Shown: in pieces, positions 2,201 to 46,947 of the stretch
Layout: each line of letters starts with the position of its first letter
Numbering within the stretch: the first letter of the stretch is position 1
Source of the DNA: Dehalococcoidia bacterium
Lineage (GTDB): Bacteria; Chloroflexota; Dehalococcoidia; WHTO01
Length of the DNA stretch: 64,000 nt
NCBI GenBank assembly: GCA_040902555.1
Contig: JBBDXC010000008.1
Coordinates: 34,629-98,628, forward strand
Direction of reading: 5' to 3'
Notes under the pieces: model-generated
Told to the model about the DNA's origin: nothing
The model's database searches: none
Seen by the model: only the letters and a program-made list of their open reading frames with translations
Made by a program: the position numbers and the translations under genes

Positions 2201-3355
2201 TTAGCCGTTGACGCCGAGCTCTTCGCGGATCGCCTCGCAGACCTCGAAGGTTGGGCCCTCGGCCTGCAGCGTGTTCTGCATCTTGTTGATCGTCACAGCG
2301 ATGCCAAGGCCGACGTCGGGGTCGGCGAAGGCCGTCGAGCCGCCGGCGCCGCTATGGCCAAAGGCGTTGAGGCGGGGGCCGTTGACTGACTTCATCGGTC
2401 CAATTGGCCCGCCGAGCATGAAACCGATCCCTTTGCGCAGCGGCAGGCCGAGGAGGACGCGGTCGGGCGCATCCGTAACCATCGTCCCCATGTTGCTCAC
2501 GCGCTCCGACGAGACAAGGCGGACGCCGTCGATCTCGCCCTTGTTGGCCAGGGCGCCGTACATGCGAGCCAGGGCGCGGGCGCTGAAGTGGCCGTTGGCG
2601 GCGGGCAGGCAGGCCTTGCGAACCCGGATGTCATCGAAGTTGACCTCCGACTCCTGGGGCATGGCCTTGAAGAAGTCGTGGTCGGGCGGGACCTGCAGCT
2701 CCTCCGGCGTCGCCATCAGCGTCTGCAGGGTAGCCAGCCTGTCCTCGACGCCGTCGGGGATGCCGCAGAACATTTCGTTCTCCACGCCCAGGGGCTGAGC
2801 GATCTCTTCGCGGATGAAGTCCTTGATGTGCCTGCCGTCGGCCCCCTGGACGATGGCGCCCACGATCCAGCCGTAGGTCAACGCGTGGTAGCCCGTAGCT
2901 GTCCCTGGCTCCCAGCCGGGAGTGGCCCCGGCGATCCAGTCGAGCCCTTTCTGCCATTCGGTCACGAACTCGACCGTCAGCGGGCTGGGTACAGCATGCA
3001 CCCCTCCCTGGTGGCTGAGCGCCTGCTCCACGGTGATCTTGTCCTTGCCGTTCTGGCCGAACTCCGGCCAGTAGCGGGTGACGGGCGCCTGGTAGTCGAG
3101 TTTGCCGCGGTCGGCCAGCATGTGGATTGCCGTGGCGGCCACGCCCTTCGTGGTCGAAAAACAGTTGAAGAGGGTGTCGAGCTGGACCGGGCGCGGGTCC
3201 TCGGGGCCCATCTCGCCGGCGACGGCGTCGACAATGACCTCGCCGTCCTTGTAAGCCGAAACCTGGACGCCGAGCTGGTCGCCCTTCTCGACCTGGCGGT
3301 CGATCAGCTGCTGGATGCTGGTGTTGATGCTGGTGCTGGTACTGGTTGCTACCAA
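2201..3355 (-). CDS. Serine hydrolase, beta-lactamase/EstB-like esterase family
   Basis: SxxK (FSTTKG), TGYHALTYG, FGHSGAGGS motifs. Confidence 0.9.
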   Translation of the reverse strand: MVATSTSTSINTSIQQLIDRQVEKGDQLGVQVSAYKDGEVIVDAVAGEMGPEDPRPVQLDTLFNCFSTTKGVAATAIHMLADRGKLDYQAPVTRYWPEFGQNGKDKITVEQALSHQGGVHAVPSPLTVEFVTEWQKGLDWIAGATPGWEPGTATGYHALTYGWIVGAIVQGADGRHIKDFIREEIAQPLGVENEMFCGIPDGVEDRLATLQTLMATPEELQVPPDHDFFKAMPQESEVNFDDIRVRKACLPAANGHFSARALARMYGALANKGEIDGVRLVSSERVSNMGTMVTDAPDRVLLGLPLRKGIGFMLGGPIGPMKSVNGPRLNAFGHSGAGGSTAFADPDVGLGIAVTINKMQNTLQAEGPTFEVCEAIREELGVNG

Positions 3356-3468
3356 GGGAGTCTCCTTTGCGCTAGTGGCGACGGGGCAGATTTCTCAATT
3401 GTGCACGATCAGGCAGGCGGCGGCCGGTTCGGGTCTGTAGCGTGGATGATGGAAGCAGGAGGCGCCCA

Positions 3469-4332
3469 GTGGCCAACGCGACTCTGAACGGCATATCGAT
3501 TCACTACGAGGTCTTCGGTCCCGCCGATGGCACGCCCATCATCCTGTGCGCGCCCGGCGGCTTCGACTCCACCATCGAGAAGTGGCGTACCGCCGGGGTC
3601 TGGCCCGAGGCCGACCCCCTCGACGCCCTACCCGCGGCCGGCTACCGCGTCGTCGCCTATGACCGGCGCGAATCCGGGGAGTCCGGCGGCCGCTTCGAGG
3701 CCCTGTCGTGGGACCTTTATGCCCACGAAATAGATGGGGTCCGCCGTGAGCTAAGCTTGGGCAAAGTCTGGCTCCTGGGCGGGTGCATGGGCTGCTCGGC
3801 CGCGTTCTCCTACGCCGTCCGATATCCAGACAACGTGGCCGGTCTGCTCTTGCACTGGCCCATCGGCGGCGAAGCCTTCTACGACCACGCCCGAGATGTC
3901 TGGTTTGGCAGTGCCATCGCTCATGCCCGCGAGCAGGGGATGACTGCCGTCGTCGAGCTTGCCCGCGAAAAGGGCTCGATGATGGCGGATGTGAAGGCGG
4001 GGCCGTGGGCGCCTGTCATCGCCCGCGATGAGGCCTTCGCCGAGATGATGGCCAGCCTGGAACCGGAAACCTACATCGAGGCTCTTGAGCGGACGAGGGA
4101 CAATCTCTTTCCCCGCGACCATGAGGCGCCGGGCGCCGAGCCCGAGCAGCTGCGTGCCCTGGACGTCCCGGTCTTCATCGCGCCTGGTGATGATCCCTTC
4201 CACGCGCCCTCGGCCGCCGCTTACCTGGCCGAGCAGCTTCCGCGCGCCGAGTCGTGGGTGCCCCGGCTGCAGCAGGACGGGAAAGGACTGATCGCCGAGA
4301 TGCTGAGCTTTCTCGGCCGGCACGCCTCCTAG
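3469..4332 (+). CDS. Alpha/beta fold hydrolase
   Basis: GTG 3469 with AGGAGG RBS; YDRRESGES, atypical nucleophile elbow GGCMG, DDPFHAP. Confidence 0.85.
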   Translation: MANATLNGISIHYEVFGPADGTPIILCAPGGFDSTIEKWRTAGVWPEADPLDALPAAGYRVVAYDRRESGESGGRFEALSWDLYAHEIDGVRRELSLGKVWLLGGCMGCSAAFSYAVRYPDNVAGLLLHWPIGGEAFYDHARDVWFGSAIAHAREQGMTAVVELAREKGSMMADVKAGPWAPVIARDEAFAEMMASLEPETYIEALERTRDNLFPRDHEAPGAEPEQLRALDVPVFIAPGDDPFHAPSAAAYLAEQLPRAESWVPRLQQDGKGLIAEMLSFLGRHAS

Positions 4333-4502
4333 CCGCGATCAACACTCAGCCCTTGTTCCTCTCTCCCGGCCGGGCGGGGGGAGATTGCCCTGTGCGGTGG
4401 CCAAAGCGTGCAAACGGCCGACAACGGCTTCGCACCATCGAGCGGCCTCCTTAAGCCGCATCTAATTACCGAGGAACTCTGCCGATACTTCCTACAGAGT
4501 CC

Positions 4503-4856
4503 ATGCCTGAACTTGTTCCAACCCAGCAGTCGTTCTCCCGCCCTGTCATCGCTCTGGGCGACGTTAAGATCGACAAGCAAAACCGCGAAGTGACGATCGG
4601 CGGCAGCCGCGTCAACATGCGGACCAAAGAGTTCCAGCTGTTGACGACGCTCGCCGAGAACTTCGAGTGTGTCCTCAGCCGCGAGGAGCTTCTCGAGATG
4701 GTCTGGGGCTACAACTTCTACGGCGAAACCCGCACCATCGACGTCCACGTCCAGCACGTGCGCCAGAAGATCCACAACAGCGACCTCCAGATCGAGACGG
4801 TGCGCGGCGTGGGCTACAAGCTCGCCGCCACCCACAAGACCCGCCTCAGCGCCTGA
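4503..4856 (+). CDS. Stand-alone OmpR/PhoB-type winged-helix DNA-binding domain protein (no receiver domain)
   Basis: KEFQLL...VLSREELLEMVWGY...RTIDVHVQHVRQKI...IETVRGVGYKL, the Trans_reg_C signature. Confidence 0.88.
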   Translation: MPELVPTQQSFSRPVIALGDVKIDKQNREVTIGGSRVNMRTKEFQLLTTLAENFECVLSREELLEMVWGYNFYGETRTIDVHVQHVRQKIHNSDLQIETVRGVGYKLAATHKTRLSA

Positions 4857-4908
4857 CAGCGTCCGCCCGCCACTTCGCCGGGGTTCAGCCGGCGGAGCCC
4901 GCGTGGCC

Positions 4909-5109
4909 GTAGGAGCGGATTTCGAATCACCACAGCGGTGAGAGCATGTCCAGCCCGGAATCCGCCTCGGTGCGTCACTCAACCAACGGCCGTGTGTTCG
5001 TAATCGGGAGCTCGTCTTAGCAGTGGGCTTTCTACTGCATCGCTCCACCTTGCGGGCAGATTCTCAGGTCGTCAAGGCAAGCCTCGTTGCAATTCGAAAT
5101 CTGCCCTAC
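4909..5109. repeat. Inverted pair of GTAG-type REP-like palindromes between convergent genes
   Basis: 4909-4968 (+) GTAGGAGCGGATTTCGAAT...GAATCCGCCTC and 5054-5109 (-) GTAGGGCAGATTTCGAAT...GAATCTGCCC. Confidence 0.65.
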
Positions 5110-5193
5110 CGTAAATATCTCGGCGGCACAACACAGGCCTGCCTGGTGACGCGTGTCCGGGCAGAAGCGAGGCAGTGGGCTTGGCGGTTGGCC

Positions 5194-5544
5194 TTAGGCC
5201 GGCTGCAGTTCCAACTGGTCGCCGTCAGCAACGCCTGCTCGCCCGAGGCTGCCTGCAGATAGCTCCACCACGGCGTGCGCGCCTTTCGCCCCCATGAGCA
5301 CCCGCCAGGGCTTGACCGCCTCGGCCACTTTGACCACGCGGTTCTCACGGTCGACAAAAGCCACGTCTATGGGGAAGCGCATGAAGAAGGTGTGGATGGA
5401 TGAACAGGGGGCGATGTAGAGAGCTTCGCCCTCATCCAACCCTTTGCGGCCCATTAGGCCCATGAAGCGACTGAGAAGGTTGTCAGCCTTGCGTGTTCGG
5501 CCGGCCAGCGGCCGGCCGCCGCATGTCAGCGCGAAATTGGCCAA
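5194..5544 (-). CDS. DUF192 family protein, last gene of the Tad operon
   Basis: SRFMGLMGR, SIHTFFMRFPIDVAFVD, VVELSAG. Confidence 0.9.
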   Translation of the reverse strand: MANFALTCGGRPLAGRTRKADNLLSRFMGLMGRKGLDEGEALYIAPCSSIHTFFMRFPIDVAFVDRENRVVKVAEAVKPWRVLMGAKGAHAVVELSAGSLGRAGVADGDQLELQPA

Positions 5545-6456
5545 CTAGCCGCCGATGCCGTTGCCGCTAATCAGCGTGATCGCCGCCGGTCCGAGGATGA
5601 TCATCATCAGTGTCGGGAAGACCCCGAAGACCAGCGGGAAGACCATCTTGACCGGGGCCTGCATCGCCTGCTCCTGCGCCTTCTGGCGGCGGCGGATGCG
5701 CAGCTGCTCCGACTGGACGCGCAGCACCTGGGCCAGCGAGACGCCCATCTGCTCTGCCTGGATCACGGCGCCAACGAAGGTCAGCAGCTCCGGGACGTCT
5801 GCCCGCTCTGCCATCTCCTGCAGGGCCTCGCGACGCGAGCGGCCGATGGCCATCTCGCGCAGCGCCCGCCCGAGCTCCTCGGCCAGCACGCTCTGGCTTT
5901 TCTCCGCCACCTTGGCGAGGGCGGCGTCGAGTCCCAAGCCCGCCTCTACCGAAGTTGTGATCAGGTCCATGGAGTCCGGCAGCGCCTTGAAGATCAGTTT
6001 GCGGCGGCGCTTGGCGGTCGTGTTGATGAACGAATAGGGCAGGAAAGCCGACACGACCAACAGGCCCAGGACGATGAGCGGGCCGAAGCCTGAAGAAAGC
6101 ACTCCTGTCGTCGCCAGGGCAAACGTGCCACCCCCGCCGAACAGGACGAAGACGACGAGCCACATGGCAATGAACTTGCGGAACTTCATCGGCTCGCCGG
6201 CCGTGATTAGCATGCGGTTGATGCGAGCGGACATGCCCGCCGGCAAGATCGAGATCACCCGGTCCACCAGGCCCTCGGTCAGCGGGTAGAGGACGCGCTC
6301 GAGGAAGGGCATCGAGTAATCGACGCGTCTGTCATCGGGGTCATAGGTGCTCATGCCTCGCAGGCGCTGCCTGAAGGTGTCTTCGCGTCTGCCAAGCAGA
6401 GCAAAGAGCAAGAGAGTGACGGTTATGCAGGCGAAAGCGGCAACGAGCAAAGGCAT
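5545..6456 (-). CDS. tadC: Tad pilus inner-membrane platform protein TadC (T2SSF family)
   Basis: LPDSMDLI...VEAGLGLDAAL, Q AEQMG...LRVQSEQLR..R..KA.E.A..APVKM. Confidence 0.92.
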   Translation of the reverse strand: MPLLVAAFACITVTLLLFALLGRREDTFRQRLRGMSTYDPDDRRVDYSMPFLERVLYPLTEGLVDRVISILPAGMSARINRMLITAGEPMKFRKFIAMWLVVFVLFGGGGTFALATTGVLSSGFGPLIVLGLLVVSAFLPYSFINTTAKRRRKLIFKALPDSMDLITTSVEAGLGLDAALAKVAEKSQSVLAEELGRALREMAIGRSRREALQEMAERADVPELLTFVGAVIQAEQMGVSLAQVLRVQSEQLRIRRRQKAQEQAMQAPVKMVFPLVFGVFPTLMMIILGPAAITLISGNGIGG

Positions 6457-39911: not shown

Positions 39912-40868
39912 TTAGCGCTGTGCGACAGGCTCCCGCAGCCCGCGCGAAAGCTCGCGGGCCGCGCTCCGCGGGTCGGTCTCTCGTCCGGCCACGCGGCTCA
40001 CAGTGTCTTCCAGGTTTTCCTGGCCGCCGGAGCGGGCGATCGCCTCGCGCAGCAGCTCGTCCTTGAGGATGTTCTCTATCTGGTGGCGGGCCTGCCGGCG
40101 GCGCAGGTTTGCCATCTCGCCGCTCTGCTGGAGATAGGAGCGGTGCTGGGCCAGGGCCGCGGCCAGCTCGTCGATGCCTTTCCCAGTCCGACCCTCGACC
40201 TTGACGACCGGCACCTTCCACTCCCGGGCTGGCCCCATCGAGAGCAGCGCGGCCAGCTGGGCTGCCAGCGTGTCGGCACCCGGCAGGTCGGCCTTGTTGA
40301 CGGCCAGGACGTCGGCCACCTCGAGGATTCCCGCCTTCATGGCCTGGATGTCGTCGCCGGTCGCCGGCGTGTTGATGACCACCGTGGTGTCGGCCAGCCC
40401 CGCGATCTCGACTTCATCCTGGCCGGCGCCGACCGTCTCGACGATCACGATCTCCTTGCCGAAGGCGTCCAGCACCAGGGCCGCCTCGAAGGTGGTCGCC
40501 GCCAACCCGCCTATCGCCCCGCGCGTCGCCATGCTGCGGATGAACACGCCCGGGTCCGACCAGTGCTCCAGCATGCGGATGCGGTCGCCCAGCACTGCGC
40601 CATGAGTGAACGGGCTGCTCGGGTCCACGGCGATGATCCCAACCGGGATGTCCTGCTTGCGGTAGAAAGCCGTCAGGGCGTTGGTCAGGGTGCTCTTGCC
40701 CGAGCCGGCAGGCCCGGTGATGCCGATGACGTGCGCCCGACCCGTATGGCGGTAGAGGGCTTTGAGCAGCCTATCGCCCTCGGCGCCGCCATTCTCAACC
40801 CTCGTCAGGGCCTGGGCCAATGCCCGACGGTCGCCCTCCAGCACGCGCGCTGCGAGGTCTTCGCTCAA
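39912..40868 (-). CDS. meaB: Methylmalonyl-CoA mutase-associated GTPase MeaB/ArgK
   Basis: [50 protein letters not shown]. Confidence 0.96.
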
Positions 40869-41281
40869 GCAGTCCCCACGCCCGCGTTCTGGCGCACGAA
40901 CTCGATGATGTCCTCGGTTGAGGACCCGGGCCCGAAGATCGCCTTGAAGCCCAGCTTCTTCAGCTCGACGATGTCGTCGCCGGGGATGATGCCCCCGCCG
41001 AAGAGCAGTACGTCGTCGGGACCAATGCCGCGGTTCTTGAGCTCGGTCACCACGCGGGGGAAGAGCTCCATGTGCGCGCCCGACAGGATCGAGAGGCCCA
41101 CAACCCCCACGTCCTCCTGCAGCGCGGCCTCGGCGATCATCTCCGGCGTCTGGCGGATCCCGGTGTAGATGACCTCCATGCCGGCGTCGCGCAGGGCGCG
41201 GGCCACCACCTTCGCGCCGCGGTCGTGGCCATCGAGGCCCGGCTTGGCGACGAGTACTCGGATTTTGCCTTCGTCGTTCAT
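40865..41281 (-). CDS. Methylmalonyl-CoA mutase C-terminal cobalamin-binding subunit
   Basis: [12 protein letters not shown] (DxHxxG), [15 protein letters not shown]. Confidence 0.95.
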
Positions 41282-41353
41282 TTCTGCCTCGTCATTCTGA
41301 AGCTGGGGCGGGGGCCGATTCCTGATTAATCATAGGTAGCCGGGAACTGACGC

Positions 41354-41770
41354 TCAGCCCGGCTCATGCTCCGCGGCCAGCGGCTGCGCGTATTCGATCA
41401 GCACGCCGTTGTTGGCGCGGGGATGCATGAAGCATATACGTCCAGCCACGCCAATACGTGGCTCCTTGTCGATCAGCTCCACGCCGCCGGCGTTCAGCCG
41501 GCCCATCTCACCCTCGATGTCGTCGGTGAGAAAGCAGACGTGGTGCAGGCCGCCCTGCTTCTCGAGGAAGCGCGCCACGCCGGTATCCGGCCTGACCGGC
41601 TCGAGGAGCTCCAGCTCGTTGTCGCCCAGGCGCAGCAGCACCGCCCGTACCCCCTGGTCCTCGACGACCTGATCGAGCGTGACCTCGAGCCCGAGGGTAT
41701 CCCTGTAGAAAGGCAGAGCCTCGTCAATCGTGCGGACGACGATACCGACGTGATGAATGCGCTTGATCAA
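41354..41770 (-). CDS. mce: Methylmalonyl-CoA epimerase (VOC family)
   Basis: TTG 41770 with GAGGTG RBS; IHHVGIVV, LELLEP, GGLHHVCF, FMHPRANNGVLIE. Confidence 0.92.
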   Translation of the reverse strand: MIKRIHHVGIVVRTIDEALPFYRDTLGLEVTLDQVVEDQGVRAVLLRLGDNELELLEPVRPDTGVARFLEKQGGLHHVCFLTDDIEGEMGRLNAGGVELIDKEPRIGVAGRICFMHPRANNGVLIEYAQPLAAEHEPG

Positions 41771-41980
41771 TGAGTCACCTCGAAGAAGAGGATGGGCGAT
41801 CCAGCGCCCAGCGGCGACCGGACGCCACCCATCCCAGACATCACGCGCGCCTAGCCGCAACGGTTCGAGAGACGCGCCCCCCGCCACCATTCAACCTCAC
41901 CCTGCCCTCTCTTTGCCCCCCGGCGGATTCGCAAACCGCGCGGGGACCCCGAGAGGGTTTTTGGGTTGAAGAGCAAAGGG

Positions 41981-42130: not shown

Positions 42131-42220
<90 letters not shown>

Positions 42221-42269: not shown

Positions 42270-42360
<91 letters not shown>

Positions 42361-42396: not shown

Positions 42397-42807
42397 CTAG
42401 GTGTCGTGCTTGTCCTTGTCCAGGTCTCGCCCCTCGCGCATCGCGAGGTACTCTGCCCGGGCCTCGATGACCCCCTCGTCGTAGCCTTCACGCGCGGCCT
42501 CGCGCGCGTCCCGGATGCGCTCCTTGACCGAGTCCAGTACGCCCCTGGGCGCCGAGGTCGCGCTCTCCAACGTGGAGGAGGCTGAGTCCCTGGCGTGGGT
42601 AACAGCGTCGGCGGCCTGCGCTTTGACCTGATCGACGAGCCGGGCGCCCGCGAGCGTCTGGTCGCGTCGTTTGAGGGCATCTGCGAGCGTCTTGCGTCCC
42701 GAAGGCTCTTGCATCTCCGCCCGGCCGCCTCGCCTCTGAATCAGCGGGCCCGCCAGCCACGTTGCCCCGATGCCCACGGCAAAGCCCACAAGCGCGCCGA
42801 AGATCAC
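42397..42807 (-). CDS. YtxH-like protein (TM helix plus helical tail)
   Basis: FGALVGFAVGIGATWLAGP followed by a charged helical region; downstream of the DUF948-like gene. Confidence 0.6.
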   Translation of the reverse strand: MIFGALVGFAVGIGATWLAGPLIQRRGGRAEMQEPSGRKTLADALKRRDQTLAGARLVDQVKAQAADAVTHARDSASSTLESATSAPRGVLDSVKERIRDAREAAREGYDEGVIEARAEYLAMREGRDLDKDKHDT

Positions 42808-43121
42808 GTCTTCCCCCTGTTCCGCACCATCCCCAGGACGCGCCGCGCCCCCATGGCCAGCGTGAACGCCCTGGCCGCGTTGCCCCCGGCGGCGGCAGCC
42901 CCAACGGACGTCGCCATGCCGGCGGCGCCGCGCACCGAGTTAACGCTGTCGCGCACGGCGTGGAGCGTCGGCTTCACCTCGTCGTTGACGAGGCCCTTGA
43001 TGTCGCCGATGAAGCCCTTAACCGAGAGGGCGATCAGGAGGAGGGAAAAAATCAGGATCGCGAAGAAGACTATCCCGAAGACAGACACAAGGATGATCAG
43101 GATGTCTCGCGCGTCGTCCAT
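42804..43121 (-). CDS. DUF948/YtxG-like membrane protein
   Basis: Long N-terminal TM helix followed by an amphipathic helix (IKGLVNDEVKPTLHAVRDSVNSVRG). Confidence 0.6.
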   Translation of the reverse strand: MDDARDILIILVSVFGIVFFAILIFSLLLIALSVKGFIGDIKGLVNDEVKPTLHAVRDSVNSVRGAAGMATSVGAAAAGGNAARAFTLAMGARRVLGMVRNRGKT

Positions 43122-43163
43122 ATATCCCCCGAATCAGCAGTATACGCCCGCGTCGGCGCGATC

Positions 43164-43769
43164 TCAGGATAAGGCGCGCGGCAGCACAATCAGCCGCCAG
43201 GCCACGGTGAACAGACAGAGGGCGGCAATGACCCAGAGGGCGAAGTAGGCCAGGCCGACCACGGCGGCGATCGCCGCTATGAATAGCCGCACGTCCCGCG
43301 AAGCCAGCCCGAACAGCAGGTCGGAGGCTTGAGCAGTCGTGCTGGCCTCGATCCTGGCTCGCGAGTAGCTCACCAGAAGCGCCCCCACCACCGCCAGGAA
43401 CCCCGCCACCGGCGCCAGGTCCCAGCCCTCATGCTCTACCGCCCACAGCGTCATCCCCGAGAAGATCAGCACGTCGGCCCAGCGATCGAGGGCCGAATCT
43501 AAGACCCCACCAAACACGGACGTCATCTTCTTGGCGCGGGCCAGGTCCCCATCCACGCCATCGACCACGGACGAAAGGTGGATCACCAGACCGGCTGCGA
43601 TGTTCCAGCCCAGGGCAAAGAGCCCGAACGCCGCGCCTGCCAGCGCCAGCGCCGCCAGCGAGACCTGGTTGGGCGTGAGGAAGGTCCCGGCGAGGAGGCG
43701 CGCCGTGGGGCGCGACAGCGGCCTGTTCAGATAGCGGGAGACCGGCCCTTCATAGGACTGGTTGGGCAC
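43164..43769 (-). CDS. CDP-alcohol phosphotransferase, DIPPS-like
   Basis: GPVSRYLNRPLSRP, TPNQVS, DGVDGDLARAKKMTSVFGGVLDSALDRWAD, SYSRAR, SRDVR. Confidence 0.9.
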   Translation of the reverse strand: MPNQSYEGPVSRYLNRPLSRPTARLLAGTFLTPNQVSLAALALAGAAFGLFALGWNIAAGLVIHLSSVVDGVDGDLARAKKMTSVFGGVLDSALDRWADVLIFSGMTLWAVEHEGWDLAPVAGFLAVVGALLVSYSRARIEASTTAQASDLLFGLASRDVRLFIAAIAAVVGLAYFALWVIAALCLFTVAWRLIVLPRALS

Positions 43770-44469
43770 CCGCCGCCCCCATCGTCTGCGCCAGGTTGTA
43801 GTCGGCCAGCGTGTCCACGTCCATCCAGAAGGCGCCGCTGATGTCCACGGCGCGCAGGGCGCTGCCGAGGGCGACGTGGCGCTGCAGGATGGCGCTCAGC
43901 TGGCTGTCGTCAGGCAGGTCATCCATGGCCTCGAAGACGCGTGGCGTCAGGTGGAAGGCGCCGGCGTCGAGGCCGCTCCATGGGTCGAGGTCCTTACGGA
44001 TGGCGACGACGTAGTTCTCCTCGTTGACCAGGACGCGCGTCGCCTCGGCGATGCAGTCGAGGTCCTTGGGGCTGTAGTCCACGGCCACGGCGTCCTGGCC
44101 CAGGGCGCCGCGGGCCAGCCGGTCGAGCAGCTCGGAGCTCAGCATGTGGTCGGCCATCGTCAGGATGAACGAGTCGTTGCCGATGGCCCGCCGGGCGCGG
44201 CGGAGGGAATAGCCGTTGGCCCGGTGGTAGTCCGGGTTGTGGGCGAAGGTGAACCTGACGTCGCGCCGGCGCTCGCGCAGGTCGCCTTCGAGCGTCTCGG
44301 CCAGGTAGCCGCTGACGACGATTATCTCGTCAACGCCGGCCTCGAGCATGCTGTCGATCGTGTAGTCGACCAGAGGGCGGCCGGCGATATCGAGCAGGGC
44401 CTTGGGCACGTTGGCCGTCAGGCCGCCAAGTCTGCTGCCATTGCCGGCGGCGAGGATTACACCCTTCAA
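43750..44469 (-). CDS. NTP transferase, IPCT / phosphocholine cytidylyltransferase-like
   Basis: GVILAAGNGSRL, VPKALL, NGYSL, MADH, LDAGAF, WMDVDT. Confidence 0.9.
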   Translation of the reverse strand: MKGVILAAGNGSRLGGLTANVPKALLDIAGRPLVDYTIDSMLEAGVDEIIVVSGYLAETLEGDLRERRRDVRFTFAHNPDYHRANGYSLRRARRAIGNDSFILTMADHMLSSELLDRLARGALGQDAVAVDYSPKDLDCIAEATRVLVNEENYVVAIRKDLDPWSGLDAGAFHLTPRVFEAMDDLPDDSQLSAILQRHVALGSALRAVDISGAFWMDVDTLADYNLAQTMGAAGAQPVL

Positions 44470-44572
44470 TCAGTACCTACCTCTCCCTCCATCCCTCTCG
44501 GGGTCCCCGTGCGGTTCAAAATCCGCCGGGGGTCAAGGAGAGGGAATGAATTCGGATTTCAGCGGCCGAAGG

Positions 44573-44605
44573 GCAACAAAACGGCCAGAGGCTAACCCCC
44601 TGGCC
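44573..44605 (-). terminator. Intrinsic terminator, expression platform of the riboswitch
   Basis: Minus strand GGCCAGGGG-GTTAG-CCTCTGGCC followed by GTTTTGTT. Confidence 0.7.
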
Positions 44606-44629
44606 TTGCCAGCGCTAGTCCTCTTCCCA

Positions 44630-44775
44630 TATTGCCTGCGAGGTTAGCTGTCGGGTTCGGCGCGGGAAGAAAATCTCGTTACGCCTACGTCTTCGGAAGA
44701 AGGACGATTCACCCCATCCAGATGGGTCCCCCGCTCTTACCGCCGGCCTGCGCCGGCGGATCGATTCGGCTGCTG
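44630..44775 (-). ncRNA. c-di-AMP (ydaO/yuaA) riboswitch
   Basis: Minus strand GCCGAATC...AGAGCGGGGGACCCATC..GATGGGGTGAATC...GTAGG...CCGAACCCGACAGCTAACCTCGCAGGC matches the conserved ydaO blocks in order. Confidence 0.93.
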
Positions 44776-44797
44776 ATGTGTCCCAGGTTCCCGCTGG

Positions 44798-44827
44798 AAG
44801 ATATGCGTCCAGCATGAGCCCTGTCAA
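44798..44827 (-). promoter_or_regulatory. sigma70-type promoter upstream of the riboswitch
   Basis: TTGACA (44827-44822), 18-nt spacer, TATCTT (44803-44798). Confidence 0.65.
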
Positions 44828-44853
44828 CAAGCCAAACGTCGCGGGTCACGCCC

Positions 44854-44980
44854 CGGTTCCCCGCCGCGGGTGGTTCGCTCTGTAGGCTTCCCCGCGCGGG
44901 AGCCCTGACGTCAAGCCTGGATGCCTCGGTTCCCCGCCGCGGGTGGTTCGCCCCTGTAGGGGCGCATCGCAATGCGCCCT
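44854..44980 (+). repeat. 33-bp direct repeat pair ending in a GTAG-REP hairpin
   Basis: CGGTTCCCCGCCGCGGGTGGTTCGCYC at 44854 and 44927; GTAGGGGCGCATCGCAATGCGCCCT at 44956. Confidence 0.75.
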
Positions 44981-45421: not shown

Positions 45422-45654
45422 AGCTGGATGCTACCTCTCACTGGGTCGGCATCCGCGCCCTTAACACCTGTAGGGCGCTCCTAACCAACGCTCGCCTTGT
45501 CGCGGAGATGGGAACGGCGCTAGCCACGCGCGTGCGGAGGCTGGACGGAGCTGGCATTCATCTCGGATGCGCCGAGTTCAGTACCCCCATTTGCGAGCAC
45601 AGACGTCCGGAGCGGACGACAGTTTTTGTCGTCCGAACGTGTTTCACTTCAAAC

Positions 45655-46947
45655 ATGAGCGGGTTCTCTCGACTCCACGTCCGCAGCGTCGAAGCTAACC
45701 GAACCATCAAGGACGAGCTTCAAGCGGCCGTTGTCCGCGTCAGTCAGCGAAAGAACATTACCGTCACCGATCTAGTCAATCCTCGTCAGGCCTTCTTTCG
45801 CCGCCGGCACCCGGACATAAGCCCCTCCCTCGATCGCGTTCAGGTAATGTGGGCGGGTTCGGGCTTTCACGAACAATTTGGGAAGGCTGCATCAAGCGAG
45901 GAGTACGTAGAGCAGTACATCGAATGGGAGAGCATCGTCGGCAAAATCGACATCTATGAAGAAGTCCCAGCGGAACTGAAAACGACTTCGGTTCACCCGC
46001 TTGACCTTCACCAACGGCCCTCTTGGATTGACCAGCTGGGGATGTATTGCGCCATGACCGACAACGATAGGGGCAACCTGCTGGTCTATCAGCGGGCGGA
46101 GTTCGGGAGGACGCCATCCCTCAGGGCCTATGACGTCACCTTTCTTGATATTCCCGGAATCCAAACCGATTTGCGTTTGGTTCGCGATCTTTTCGTAAAT
46201 GCCTTGGAGAACGACGATCCTGGCCTGCTGGATCGTTGCGAATGGTCCGGCCGGTGTGATTACGGTGCCGTCTGTGGCTGCGCCCAGCTGCCGGAGGCAT
46301 CAGCGCTCGTCGGGCGCGCCCGCTGCGCTATCGCGGAGAACACGGAACTTGCAAGTCGACTGAGCTCGTTGCTTGGCGAGCAGCCTGCGCCGCCGGGGTG
46401 GCGATTGACCGATCTCGTATTTCCTCGGAAAGCACTGCTCGAGCGCACCACCTCAAAATCGCAGAGTGAACGGGAGCAGGAGGACGAATTCAAGTCAATG
46501 CAGCGACAGGGCTTCCAGCAGGCATTGTTGCAATCTCTCTACTACGGAGTGCGGGGAGCCTTCCGAGGGCAGCCGATCGCGCTGGGGGACCTGAGCGGCG
46601 TGGTCCGCCTGTTCCGGGATGCACCCACGCTGTTCCGGGTTAGCCACTTTAAGGAGATGGTTGAACGGCATCGGCTGGCAGAGGCAATGCCCCATTATCT
46701 CGATCGCCTAGCATTCGAATGCGCTCTTACTGACCTCGACAAGGGACGCATCGTGATCCATCTCGACCGACTTGCCGGGGCCAAGTTCATGGTCTACGAC
46801 GTTGGTTTCCGGGATCTCCCCGGTATCAAGATTGAAGCAGAACGCCGACTCGCGCTGTTGCAGAGTGGATCGATCGACGGTCTCCCGAAATGTCCGTCGT
46901 GGATGGCGCGCTATTGCTCGTTTGCTCCAAAGTGTGGTTGTTCTTAA
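45655..46947 (+). CDS. Tandem-duplicated Cas4-like PD-(D/E)XK nuclease (solo, no CRISPR)
   Basis: Domain 1: GSGFH, GKID, ELKT, DQLGMY, CEWSGRCDYGAVCGC. Domain 2 is a degenerate copy ending CPSWMARYCSFAPKCGC. Confidence 0.8.
   Translation: MSGFSRLHVRSVEANRTIKDELQAAVVRVSQRKNITVTDLVNPRQAFFRRRHPDISPSLDRVQVMWAGSGFHEQFGKAASSEEYVEQYIEWESIVGKIDIYEEVPAELKTTSVHPLDLHQRPSWIDQLGMYCAMTDNDRGNLLVYQRAEFGRTPSLRAYDVTFLDIPGIQTDLRLVRDLFVNALENDDPGLLDRCEWSGRCDYGAVCGCAQLPEASALVGRARCAIAENTELASRLSSLLGEQPAPPGWRLTDLVFPRKALLERTTSKSQSEREQEDEFKSMQRQGFQQALLQSLYYGVRGAFRGQPIALGDLSGVVRLFRDAPTLFRVSHFKEMVERHRLAEAMPHYLDRLAFECALTDLDKGRIVIHLDRLAGAKFMVYDVGFRDLPGIKIEAERRLALLQSGSIDGLPKCPSWMARYCSFAPKCGCS

Follow-up and report, generated by a model that had tools for sequence, protein, structure and literature searches.

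Organization of the locus

A 64-kb stretch of DNA from an uncultured member of the Dehalococcoidia (Chloroflexota), referred to here as the window, carries on its minus strand a putative four-gene operon headed by a leader RNA of the cyclic di-AMP (c-di-AMP) riboswitch class RF00379. In the direction of transcription a promoter is followed by the aptamer, an intrinsic terminator, a ribosome-binding site (RBS) and four closely spaced genes (Table 1), which encode a nucleotidyltransferase, a CDP-alcohol phosphotransferase and two small membrane proteins. Genes 1 and 2 overlap by 20 nt, genes 2 and 3 are separated by 42 nt and genes 3 and 4 overlap by 4 nt. A preliminary description of this DNA had listed a promoter, an aptamer, a terminator and four genes in this region, and each of them was recovered where it had been placed, on the minus strand. 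The four-gene set is also present as a near-identical copy on an independent 2.6-kb Logan contig, and the stretch was found in four sequencing runs of a sediment metagenome, all of them of DNA.

Table 1. Leader elements and genes of the putative operon (positions in the window)
Feature	Position	Strand	Description
Sigma-70-type promoter	44827-44798	minus	TTGACA-18-TATCTT; consensus scan, 10/12 positions
c-di-AMP aptamer, RF00379	44781-44619	minus	ydaO/kimA class (ydaO/yuaA leader); cmscan
Candidate antiterminator strand	44649-44640	minus	AGCUAACCUC, aptamer 3' strand; RNAduplex
Intrinsic terminator	44605-44573	minus	Hairpin GGCCAGGGG/CCUCUGGCC at 44605-44583, then GUUUUGUUGC; terminator scan
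RBS	44480-44490	minus	GAGGGAGAGG, ahead of the TTG start at 44469; read from sequence
Gene 1	44469-43750	minus	239 aa; NTP_transf_3 and NTP_transferase; TTG start at 44469
Gene 2	43769-43164	minus	201 aa; CDP-OH_P_transf
Gene 3	43121-42804	minus	105 aa; small membrane protein
Gene 4	42807-42397	minus	136 aa; small membrane-anchored helical protein

The riboswitch leader

When the window was scanned against all Rfam models with cmscan, RF00379 was the sole riboswitch match, scoring 81.0 bits (E 2.9e-17) against a gathering threshold of 38. The ydaO-type assignment made in the preliminary description thus stands well above threshold. The match covers the model from end to end (positions 1-134 of 134), and the nucleotides of the conserved core and the conserved blocks are intact. 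The aptamers of related leaders are diverse in sequence, and RNAalifold on the homologous leaders showed double compensatory changes at 10 of 24 consensus pairs. The aptamer is an ordinary member of the RF00379 class. The promoter, one of three promoter-like sites found in the region by the consensus scan against 0.4 expected, lies 17 nt upstream of the first position of the aptamer.

The terminator scan detected one terminator-like hairpin in the region, with a 9-bp stem containing seven G-C pairs and a 5-nt loop, which folds at -23.2 kcal/mol and lies 100 nt ahead of the start codon of gene 1. RNAduplex paired the 3' segment of the aptamer with the left arm and loop of this hairpin (GGGGGUUAGC, 44600-44591) at -20.4 kcal/mol, and in such a fold the aptamer 3' strand would compete with the terminator left arm, as in an OFF-type expression platform. 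An aptamer/terminator competition of this kind has been described for a Dehalobacter c-di-AMP switch, where read-through in vitro falls below 5% in the presence of c-di-AMP (White et al. 2022, PMC9337991). On this precedent we read the leader as a putative OFF switch. Its response to c-di-AMP, the direction of the control and the co-transcription of the four genes are inferred.

A weak promoter-like site (CTGAGA-17-TATACT, 43167-43139, minus strand, 9/12 matches) was also found in the 42-nt gap region before gene 3; it might drive expression of genes 3 and 4 independently of the riboswitch.

Recurrence of the leader in related genomes

Related loci were collected by scanning one genome per species with an alignment of relatives of gene 1, which gave 80 loci from Dehalococcoidia, Anaerolineae, other Chloroflexota and Bathyarchaeota (numbered L001 and so on where they have to be told apart). 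Rfam scans of all 80 found RF00379 directly upstream and on the same strand in 20, with scores of 48-109 bits. By group, the riboswitch was present in 15 of 21 loci from Anaerolineae, in two of 34 from Dehalococcoidia in addition to the window, and in none of nine from Bathyarchaeota. A permissive scan of 11 riboswitch-less loci, including the syntenic L062 and L069, revealed no concealed aptamer at E<=0.1. The terminator scan of the 20 related leaders gave candidate hairpins with a U-tract in 13. About six of these (L008, L009, L010, L014, L030 and L037) are clean stems within roughly 25 nt of where the aptamer ends; the others are irregular in form, lie far off or run into the aptamer.

Two tRNA-Ser genes (CGA and GGA anticodons, 42131-42220 and 42270-42359) are convergent with the end of the operon. 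This synteny is kept in the Dehalococcoidia loci L007, L008, L062, L069 and L075, only some of which carry the riboswitch. Since the synteny is constant and the riboswitch is not, the switch was gained or lost at a fixed locus.

The aptamer of the window could also be a decaying or non-regulatory relic, or control nothing beyond a short leader transcript, the four genes being driven by other signals. The 100 nt that separate the terminator from the start codon, the weak promoter-like site inside the operon, the restriction of the sequencing runs to DNA and the lack of a riboswitch in the orthologous L062 and L069 would all fit such a relic. On the other hand, the aptamer scores high over its full length and keeps its conserved core, the order promoter-aptamer-terminator-RBS is complete, and 20 loci from several classes preserve the layout with diverged, covarying sequences. 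We regard a relic as very improbable.

A second RF00379 aptamer (67 bits) was found in L025 at 2106-2237, downstream of the pair of enzyme genes. It precedes a gene for a 753-aa AAA/TPR-type regulator-like protein, so that this region carries two c-di-AMP switches.

Gene 1 encodes an IPCT-like nucleotidyltransferase

The product of gene 1 matched Pfam PF12804 (78.7 bits) as well as PF00483. Its N-terminus, MKGVILAAGNGSRL, is a canonical NTP transferase start, and the protein has LAAGNGSRL, a nucleotide loop of the GxGxRL type. The top NCBIfam match was the CTP:inositol-1-phosphate cytidylyltransferase (IPCT) half of NF041135, with 132.6 bits against 87.8 for the runner-up. The cut-off of this model (580) was set for the fused Thermococcales enzyme and cannot be reached by half a protein. 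Among structures in the Protein Data Bank (PDB), the three best matches of gene 1, each over its full length, were the Archaeoglobus fulgidus IPCT (2xme, 91.9 bits), the same domain in 4mnd (89.9 bits) and 4jd0 (72.4 bits), the last of which we take to be the Thermotoga IPCT. LicC aligned with the N-terminal half only, at 57 bits. The alternative that the preliminary description had allowed for, a LicC-type enzyme, is thus disfavoured, and gene 1 lies nearer to the IPCTs (2xme and 4jd0, full length) than to LicC. In a tree with LicC and the IPCTs the branches were long and the base was not resolved, so that the assignment rests on full-length similarity and gene context. On these grounds gene 1 is predicted to encode a CTP:inositol-1-phosphate cytidylyltransferase.

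Gene 2 encodes a CDP-alcohol phosphotransferase, probably of the AF2299/DIPPS type

The product of gene 2 belongs to Pfam PF01066. Among NCBIfam models it scored 110.8 bits with that for archaetidylinositol-phosphate synthase (AIPS; cut-off 180), 98.5 bits with that for phosphatidylinositol-phosphate synthase (PIPS; cut-off 170), 98.5 bits with the half of NF041135 that corresponds to the synthase of di-myo-inositol-phosphate-phosphate (DIPPS) and 67.3 bits with the BT1523-type model (cut-off 350), all under cut-off; the pgsA model gave 19.8 bits against a cut-off of 109. Compared with proteins of solved structure, the family profile of gene 2 matched AF2299 with 161.8 bits, the DIPPS of A. 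fulgidus (AfDIPPS) with 117.1 bits and the PIPS of Mycobacterium tuberculosis (MtPIPS) with 85.3 bits, and the identity of gene 2 to AF2299 is 33-34%. The AlphaFold model (pLDDT 89.7) consists of a juxtamembrane helix and six transmembrane (TM) helices, with no added C-terminal helices. Its TM-score was 0.84-0.88 to AF2299, 0.82 to IPCT-DIPPS (4mnd) and 0.70-0.79 to PIP synthases, and Foldseek gave at most 0.5 to PgsA, PSS and CPT1. AF2299 and AfDIPPS fell among the Chloroflexota and Bathyarchaeota sequences in a tree of this domain, with the actinobacterial PIPS apart (SH-aLRT 95), in a topology with long branches and without an AIPS reference. Gene 2 therefore groups with AF2299 and AfDIPPS and apart from PgsA and the actinobacterial PIPS, and the PgsA affiliation for which the preliminary description had left room is not borne out.

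The residues of the active site agree with this grouping. The signature D1xxD2GxxAR...GxxxD3xxxD4 is complete, and its residues D70, D73, G74, A77, R78, G87, D91 and D95 are invariant in the family alignment. The residues of MtPIPS that hold inositol phosphate are S132, K135, R155 and R195 (Clarke et al. 2015, PMC4634129); their equivalents in gene 2 are S134, R137, R161 and R192, which are invariant or nearly so among 27 family members. CDP-diacylglycerol (CDP-DAG) is contacted in MtPIPS by D31, M69 and P153 (PMC4634129). At these positions gene 2 has N34, G71 and D159, and the alignment showed the same residues in AF2299 and AfDIPPS, two enzymes that process no lipid and have a small, hydrophilic donor pocket (PMC4634129). 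As judged from its sequence, the donor pocket of gene 2 may thus be hydrophilic and of the non-lipid type. The conserved acceptor residues together with the N/G/D donor residues fit the transfer of a soluble CDP-alcohol to inositol-1-phosphate, and gene 2 is predicted to encode a CDP-inositol:inositol-1-phosphate transferase of the DIPPS type.

The preliminary description had pointed to IPCT- and DIPPS-type motifs in the two enzymes. One of these, GPVSRYLNRPLS, forms residues 8-19 of the 201-aa gene 2 protein and lies in the juxtamembrane helix. The profile alignment showed that MtPIPS has the same helix (SRAAFARITTPIAR). This motif is common to PIPS and thus not diagnostic for DIPPS, and it was dropped as a DIPPS-specific marker.

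The principal competing explanation is that the two enzymes make an inositol lipid under the same riboswitch, c-di-AMP tuning membrane composition and not solute pools. The lipid could arise by a PIPS/AIPS-type reaction of CDP-DAG with inositol-1-phosphate, or by a Kennedy-type route in which CDP-inositol reacts with a lipid alcohol, as proposed for Bacteroidetes. The AIPS and PIPS models match gene 2 with scores that equal or exceed that of the DIPPS half, and its acceptor motif, SYSRARxEAS, is nearly identical to the SYIKARAEAS of PIPS. The enzyme pair is common in Chloroflexota and riboswitch-free in 60 of the 80 loci, which would suit a membrane-lipid role. Phosphatidylinositol has been reported in several Chloroflexota, for example in Ktedonobacter, the genus of locus L067, and this also counts for a lipid product. 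A route to inositol lipids through an NTP transferase and a CDP-alcohol transferase has been proposed (Heaver et al. 2022, PMC9246714), and envelope genes are frequent targets of c-di-AMP riboswitches (PMC9960051).

Several observations argue against a lipid product. The three CDP-DAG contact positions carry the same replacements as in AF2299 and AfDIPPS, which do not act on lipids, and the conserved phosphate-binding arginines would be needless for a lipid acceptor. The PIPS reaction requires no cytidylyltransferase, and here gene 1 is adjacent to, overlaps or is fused to gene 2. Lipid-acceptor enzymes usually have extra TM helices, and the soluble-acceptor enzymes of the class have six (Clarke et al. 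2015, PMC4634129), the number in the gene 2 model. The Bacteroidetes route (PMC9246714) is itself unconfirmed and involves a HAD gene, which this operon lacks. Finally, no lipid-synthesis genes were found in the neighbourhoods of the pair in other genomes, where the neighbours (UvrB, SecA, YebC, PEPCK, a P-type ATPase and GT4) are unrelated housekeeping genes. An inositol lipid is, in our estimate, an unlikely product, but it is the one that deserves most attention after the soluble solute discussed below.

Genes 3 and 4 encode small membrane proteins

Hydropathy analysis predicted one N-terminal TM segment in each of the products of genes 3 and 4, followed in gene 3 by a Gly/Ala-rich tail. 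Neither protein of the window matched Pfam. The position of gene 3 is kept in L007, L008, L062, L069 and L075. Among these five orthologues, that of L069 matched DUF948 (PF06103) with 15.3 bits against a cut-off of 37.2 and the other four gave no match, and the homologues of gene 3 in databases carry no precomputed Pfam domain. A DUF948 identity of gene 3 thus received no support from Pfam, whether from the window protein, the five orthologues or the database homologues. The positional orthologues of gene 4 scored with YtxH (PF12732, cut-off 37.5) 52.6 bits in L062, 34.7 bits in L069 and 26.7 bits in L007, and in L001 the precomputed annotation reads 'YtxH (faint)'. Of the DUF948/YtxH-like pair named in the preliminary description, the YtxH part is therefore sustained through the orthologues and the DUF948 part is weak. 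Judged by these comparisons, gene 4 is probably a divergent YtxH-like gene and gene 3 is at most weakly DUF948-like. Partners of the YtxH type favour a stress role over a housekeeping one for the operon.

Gene context of the enzyme pair

In about 60 of the 80 loci the relative of gene 1 is directly followed by a relative of gene 2, and L024 carries them as a fusion. The gene for inositol-1-phosphate synthase, ino1 (PF01658; TIGR03450, 528 bits), stands beside the pair in nine loci: it is within the riboswitch operon in L014, L015, L037 and L042 and adjoins the pair in five more. The presence of ino1 within the riboswitch operon of relatives links the system to inositol. In agreement with the full-length IPCT matches of gene 1 and the grouping of gene 2 with AF2299 and AfDIPPS, this context supports the IPCT/DIPPS-like reading of the enzyme pair given in the preliminary description.

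The pair is not uniform. Eight Anaerolineae operons (L009, L010 at 4262-5608, L014, L018, L030, L037, L068 and L083) have, instead of the 200-aa transferase, a protein of 430-450 aa composed of a degenerate cytidylyltransferase-like domain and a divergent CDP-alcohol transferase domain, a layout like that of AF2299. In the domain tree these proteins share a very long branch with a Bathyarchaeota group. In SAR202-type Dehalococcoidia (L065 at 4310-5239, L070, L073 and L077) a gene of the LicD family replaces the CDP-alcohol transferase, which suggests that a LicC-like, phosphocholine-type subclade is nested in the gene 1 family.

This LicD-linked subclade bears on a further explanation, in which phospho-inositol or some other phospho-alcohol would be attached to a polymer or glycan of the envelope, in the manner of LicC/LicD or of teichoic acids and in the service of cell-wall homeostasis. 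The Joint Genome Institute (JGI) annotation labels several homologues of gene 1 'choline kinase' or phosphocholine cytidylyltransferase family, and cell-wall genes are classic targets of c-di-AMP riboswitches (PMC9960051). Against this stand the alignment of LicC over half the length of gene 1 where the IPCTs align in full, the lack of LicD, glycosyltransferase or flippase genes in the operon of the window, the co-operonic ino1 of relatives and the inositol-phosphate-binding residues retained by gene 2. Decoration of the envelope seems to us improbable.

In L017 the riboswitch-controlled pair is directly followed by two tandem genes of the metallo-beta-lactamase fold (Lactamase_B_2, 2306-3849). 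They could supply a missing phosphatase or phosphodiesterase step.

Proposed function and control

c-di-AMP is a central regulator of turgor in many bacteria, and the known targets of its riboswitches are mainly transporters and wall hydrolases. The explanation that we favour, with somewhat better than even confidence, is that the leader is a transcriptional OFF riboswitch for c-di-AMP gating an operon for osmotic or desiccation stress, which would produce a solute of the di-myo-inositol phosphate (DIP) or glycerophosphoinositol type together with stress proteins. At high c-di-AMP, when turgor is satisfied, the ligand would fix the 3' strand of the aptamer, the terminator hairpin would form and transcription would stop at the U-tract. 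A drop in c-di-AMP under hyperosmotic stress would free the aptamer 3' strand for pairing with the terminator's left arm, allowing RNA polymerase to read through.

For the enzymes we infer the substrates and the product from protein family and conserved residues. Gene 1 would convert L-myo-inositol-1-phosphate and CTP to CDP-inositol, and gene 2 would pass the inositol-phosphoryl group on to another soluble, phosphorylated alcohol, with inositol-1-phosphate as the likeliest acceptor. The product of this transfer would be di-myo-inositol-phosphate-phosphate (DIPP), whose dephosphorylation would give DIP; alternatively, gene 2 could yield a glycerophosphoinositol-type solute. Genes 3 and 4 would encode membrane-anchored stress proteins in the style of YtxG and YtxH, made together with the enzymes.

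Several results weigh against the assignment to a soluble inositol solute under c-di-AMP control. Within the 64-kb window there is neither an ino1 gene (MIPS) nor a diadenylate-cyclase motif (GTRHR/DGA), and no RNA run is among the sequencing runs that hold the stretch. The AIPS model ranked above the DIPPS half for gene 2, and no NCBIfam equivalog cut-off was reached by either enzyme. The limits of the gene 2 tree and the many riboswitch-free pairs, both mentioned above, count on the same side, and the LicD-linked subclade implies that substrate switches happen within the gene 1 family. Papers disagree on the physiological function of AF2299, the protein of solved structure that comes nearest to gene 2. 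No source of DIP other than (hyper)thermophiles is known, and the solute has been regarded as a hallmark of hyperthermophiles; the metagenome-assembled genomes with the pair come from sediment, farmland and groundwater.

A broader proposal is that mesophilic Chloroflexota, namely most of the pair-bearing Anaerolineae and some Dehalococcoidia, make DIP or a close inositol phosphodiester osmolyte, and that the whole pathway (ino1, IPCT and the DIPPS-type transferase) is shut off through a c-di-AMP riboswitch. This is a tentative proposal to which we give slightly less than even confidence. If true, it would establish a direct link at the RNA level between a turgor messenger and the de novo synthesis of a phosphodiester solute. 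An inositol-phosphodiester target would also add a biosynthetic branch to the c-di-AMP regulon of Chloroflexota, a phylum that is large but poorly represented in culture, and would be the first regulatory hint on the role of the widespread IPCT/CDP-alcohol-transferase pair beyond hyperthermophiles. The riboswitch acts here as a functional label, which argues that the pair and the YtxH-type proteins serve the physiology of osmotic or desiccation stress.

Comparison with known systems

The leader of the window shares the full-length aptamer family of the ydaO/kimA-class switches, such as those of Bacillus subtilis kimA and Dehalobacter sp. CF ablA. As predicted here, it also shares with them a terminator-based OFF platform in which 3' nucleotides of the aptamer can pair with the left arm of the terminator. 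An osmotic-stress function is controlled in the kimA-class switches and, as proposed here, in the window. Unlike these systems, the window has a Chloroflexota host and no tandem Na+ aptamer.

No paper joining a c-di-AMP riboswitch (ydaO) with inositol, di-myo-inositol, DIP or cytidylyltransferases was found in the searchable literature, nor one that names the IPCT/CDP-alcohol transferase pair, the ino1 of relatives or the YtxH-type proteins as its targets. The Dehalobacter switch turns off ablA, whose product serves the making of an osmolyte precursor (PMC9337991). The novelty is thus narrower than the preliminary description implied, since control of osmolyte biosynthesis by a c-di-AMP riboswitch was shown in vitro for ablA in 2022 (PMC9337991). 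Given this precedent, the riboswitch class is a known one, and what appears to be new is the IPCT/CDP-alcohol transferase pathway as part of its regulon.

The IPCT/DIPPS of A. fulgidus (AF0263, 4mnd/2xme) couples, as in the window, an IPCT-like enzyme to a six-TM CDP-alcohol phosphotransferase, and AfDIPPS and gene 2 have the catalytic signature and the N/G/D donor-site residues in common. Another parallel with the DIP pathway of hyperthermophiles is the ino1 gene that accompanies the pair in relatives of the window. The A. fulgidus enzyme is bifunctional, whereas in the window the two predicted activities are on separate, overlapping genes. Gene 2 is about 25% identical to the A. fulgidus DIPPS domain and has the PIPS-like acceptor motif SYSRAR in place of SYTSEK. 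The reference organisms of the DIP pathway are hyperthermophiles, whereas those of the window type live in non-thermal sediments and soils.

AF2299 (4o6m/4o6n/4q7c, with CDP-glycerol) has the same juxtamembrane helix and donor-site residues as gene 2. It differs in having an N-terminal cytidylyltransferase-like domain and in lacking the Ser/Lys(Arg) inositol-phosphate pair (AYTGDK). The fused AF2299-like layout is found in some Anaerolineae operons (for example L010 and L014) but not in the window. With PIPS (PgsA1 of M. tuberculosis and the PIPS of Renibacterium salmoninarum) and the archaeal AIPS, gene 2 has in common the fold, the size and the S/K(R)/R/R residues. It is unlike PIPS in its replaced CDP-DAG-contact residues and its separate branch, and PIPS and AIPS need no partner cytidylyltransferase, which the window pair has.

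In B. subtilis, ytxG and ytxH are general-stress genes of the DUF948 and YtxH families under sigma-B control. Genes 3 and 4 resemble them in that two small helical proteins with an N-terminal anchor are encoded by neighbouring genes of a stress-regulated operon, a regulation that in the window is proposed. They differ in scoring under the Pfam thresholds and in being placed under a riboswitch instead of sigma-B.

Neighbouring features

Next to the tRNA genes, at 39912-41890 on the minus strand, lie genes for a MeaB-like GTPase, a B12-binding domain protein and a glyoxalase-fold (epimerase-like) protein, which form a methylmalonyl-CoA-type cluster that is syntenic in L001. On the other side of the operon, immediately upstream of the promoter of the riboswitch, the direct repeat GCC[C/T]CGGTTCCCCGCCGCGGGTGGTTCGC, 29 nt long, occurs in two copies (44850-44878 and 44923-44951) 73 nt apart, where none would be expected by chance. 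The repeats are about 560 nt from a gene for a Cas4-like nuclease (45508-46947) and may be a two-repeat, CRISPR-like remnant.

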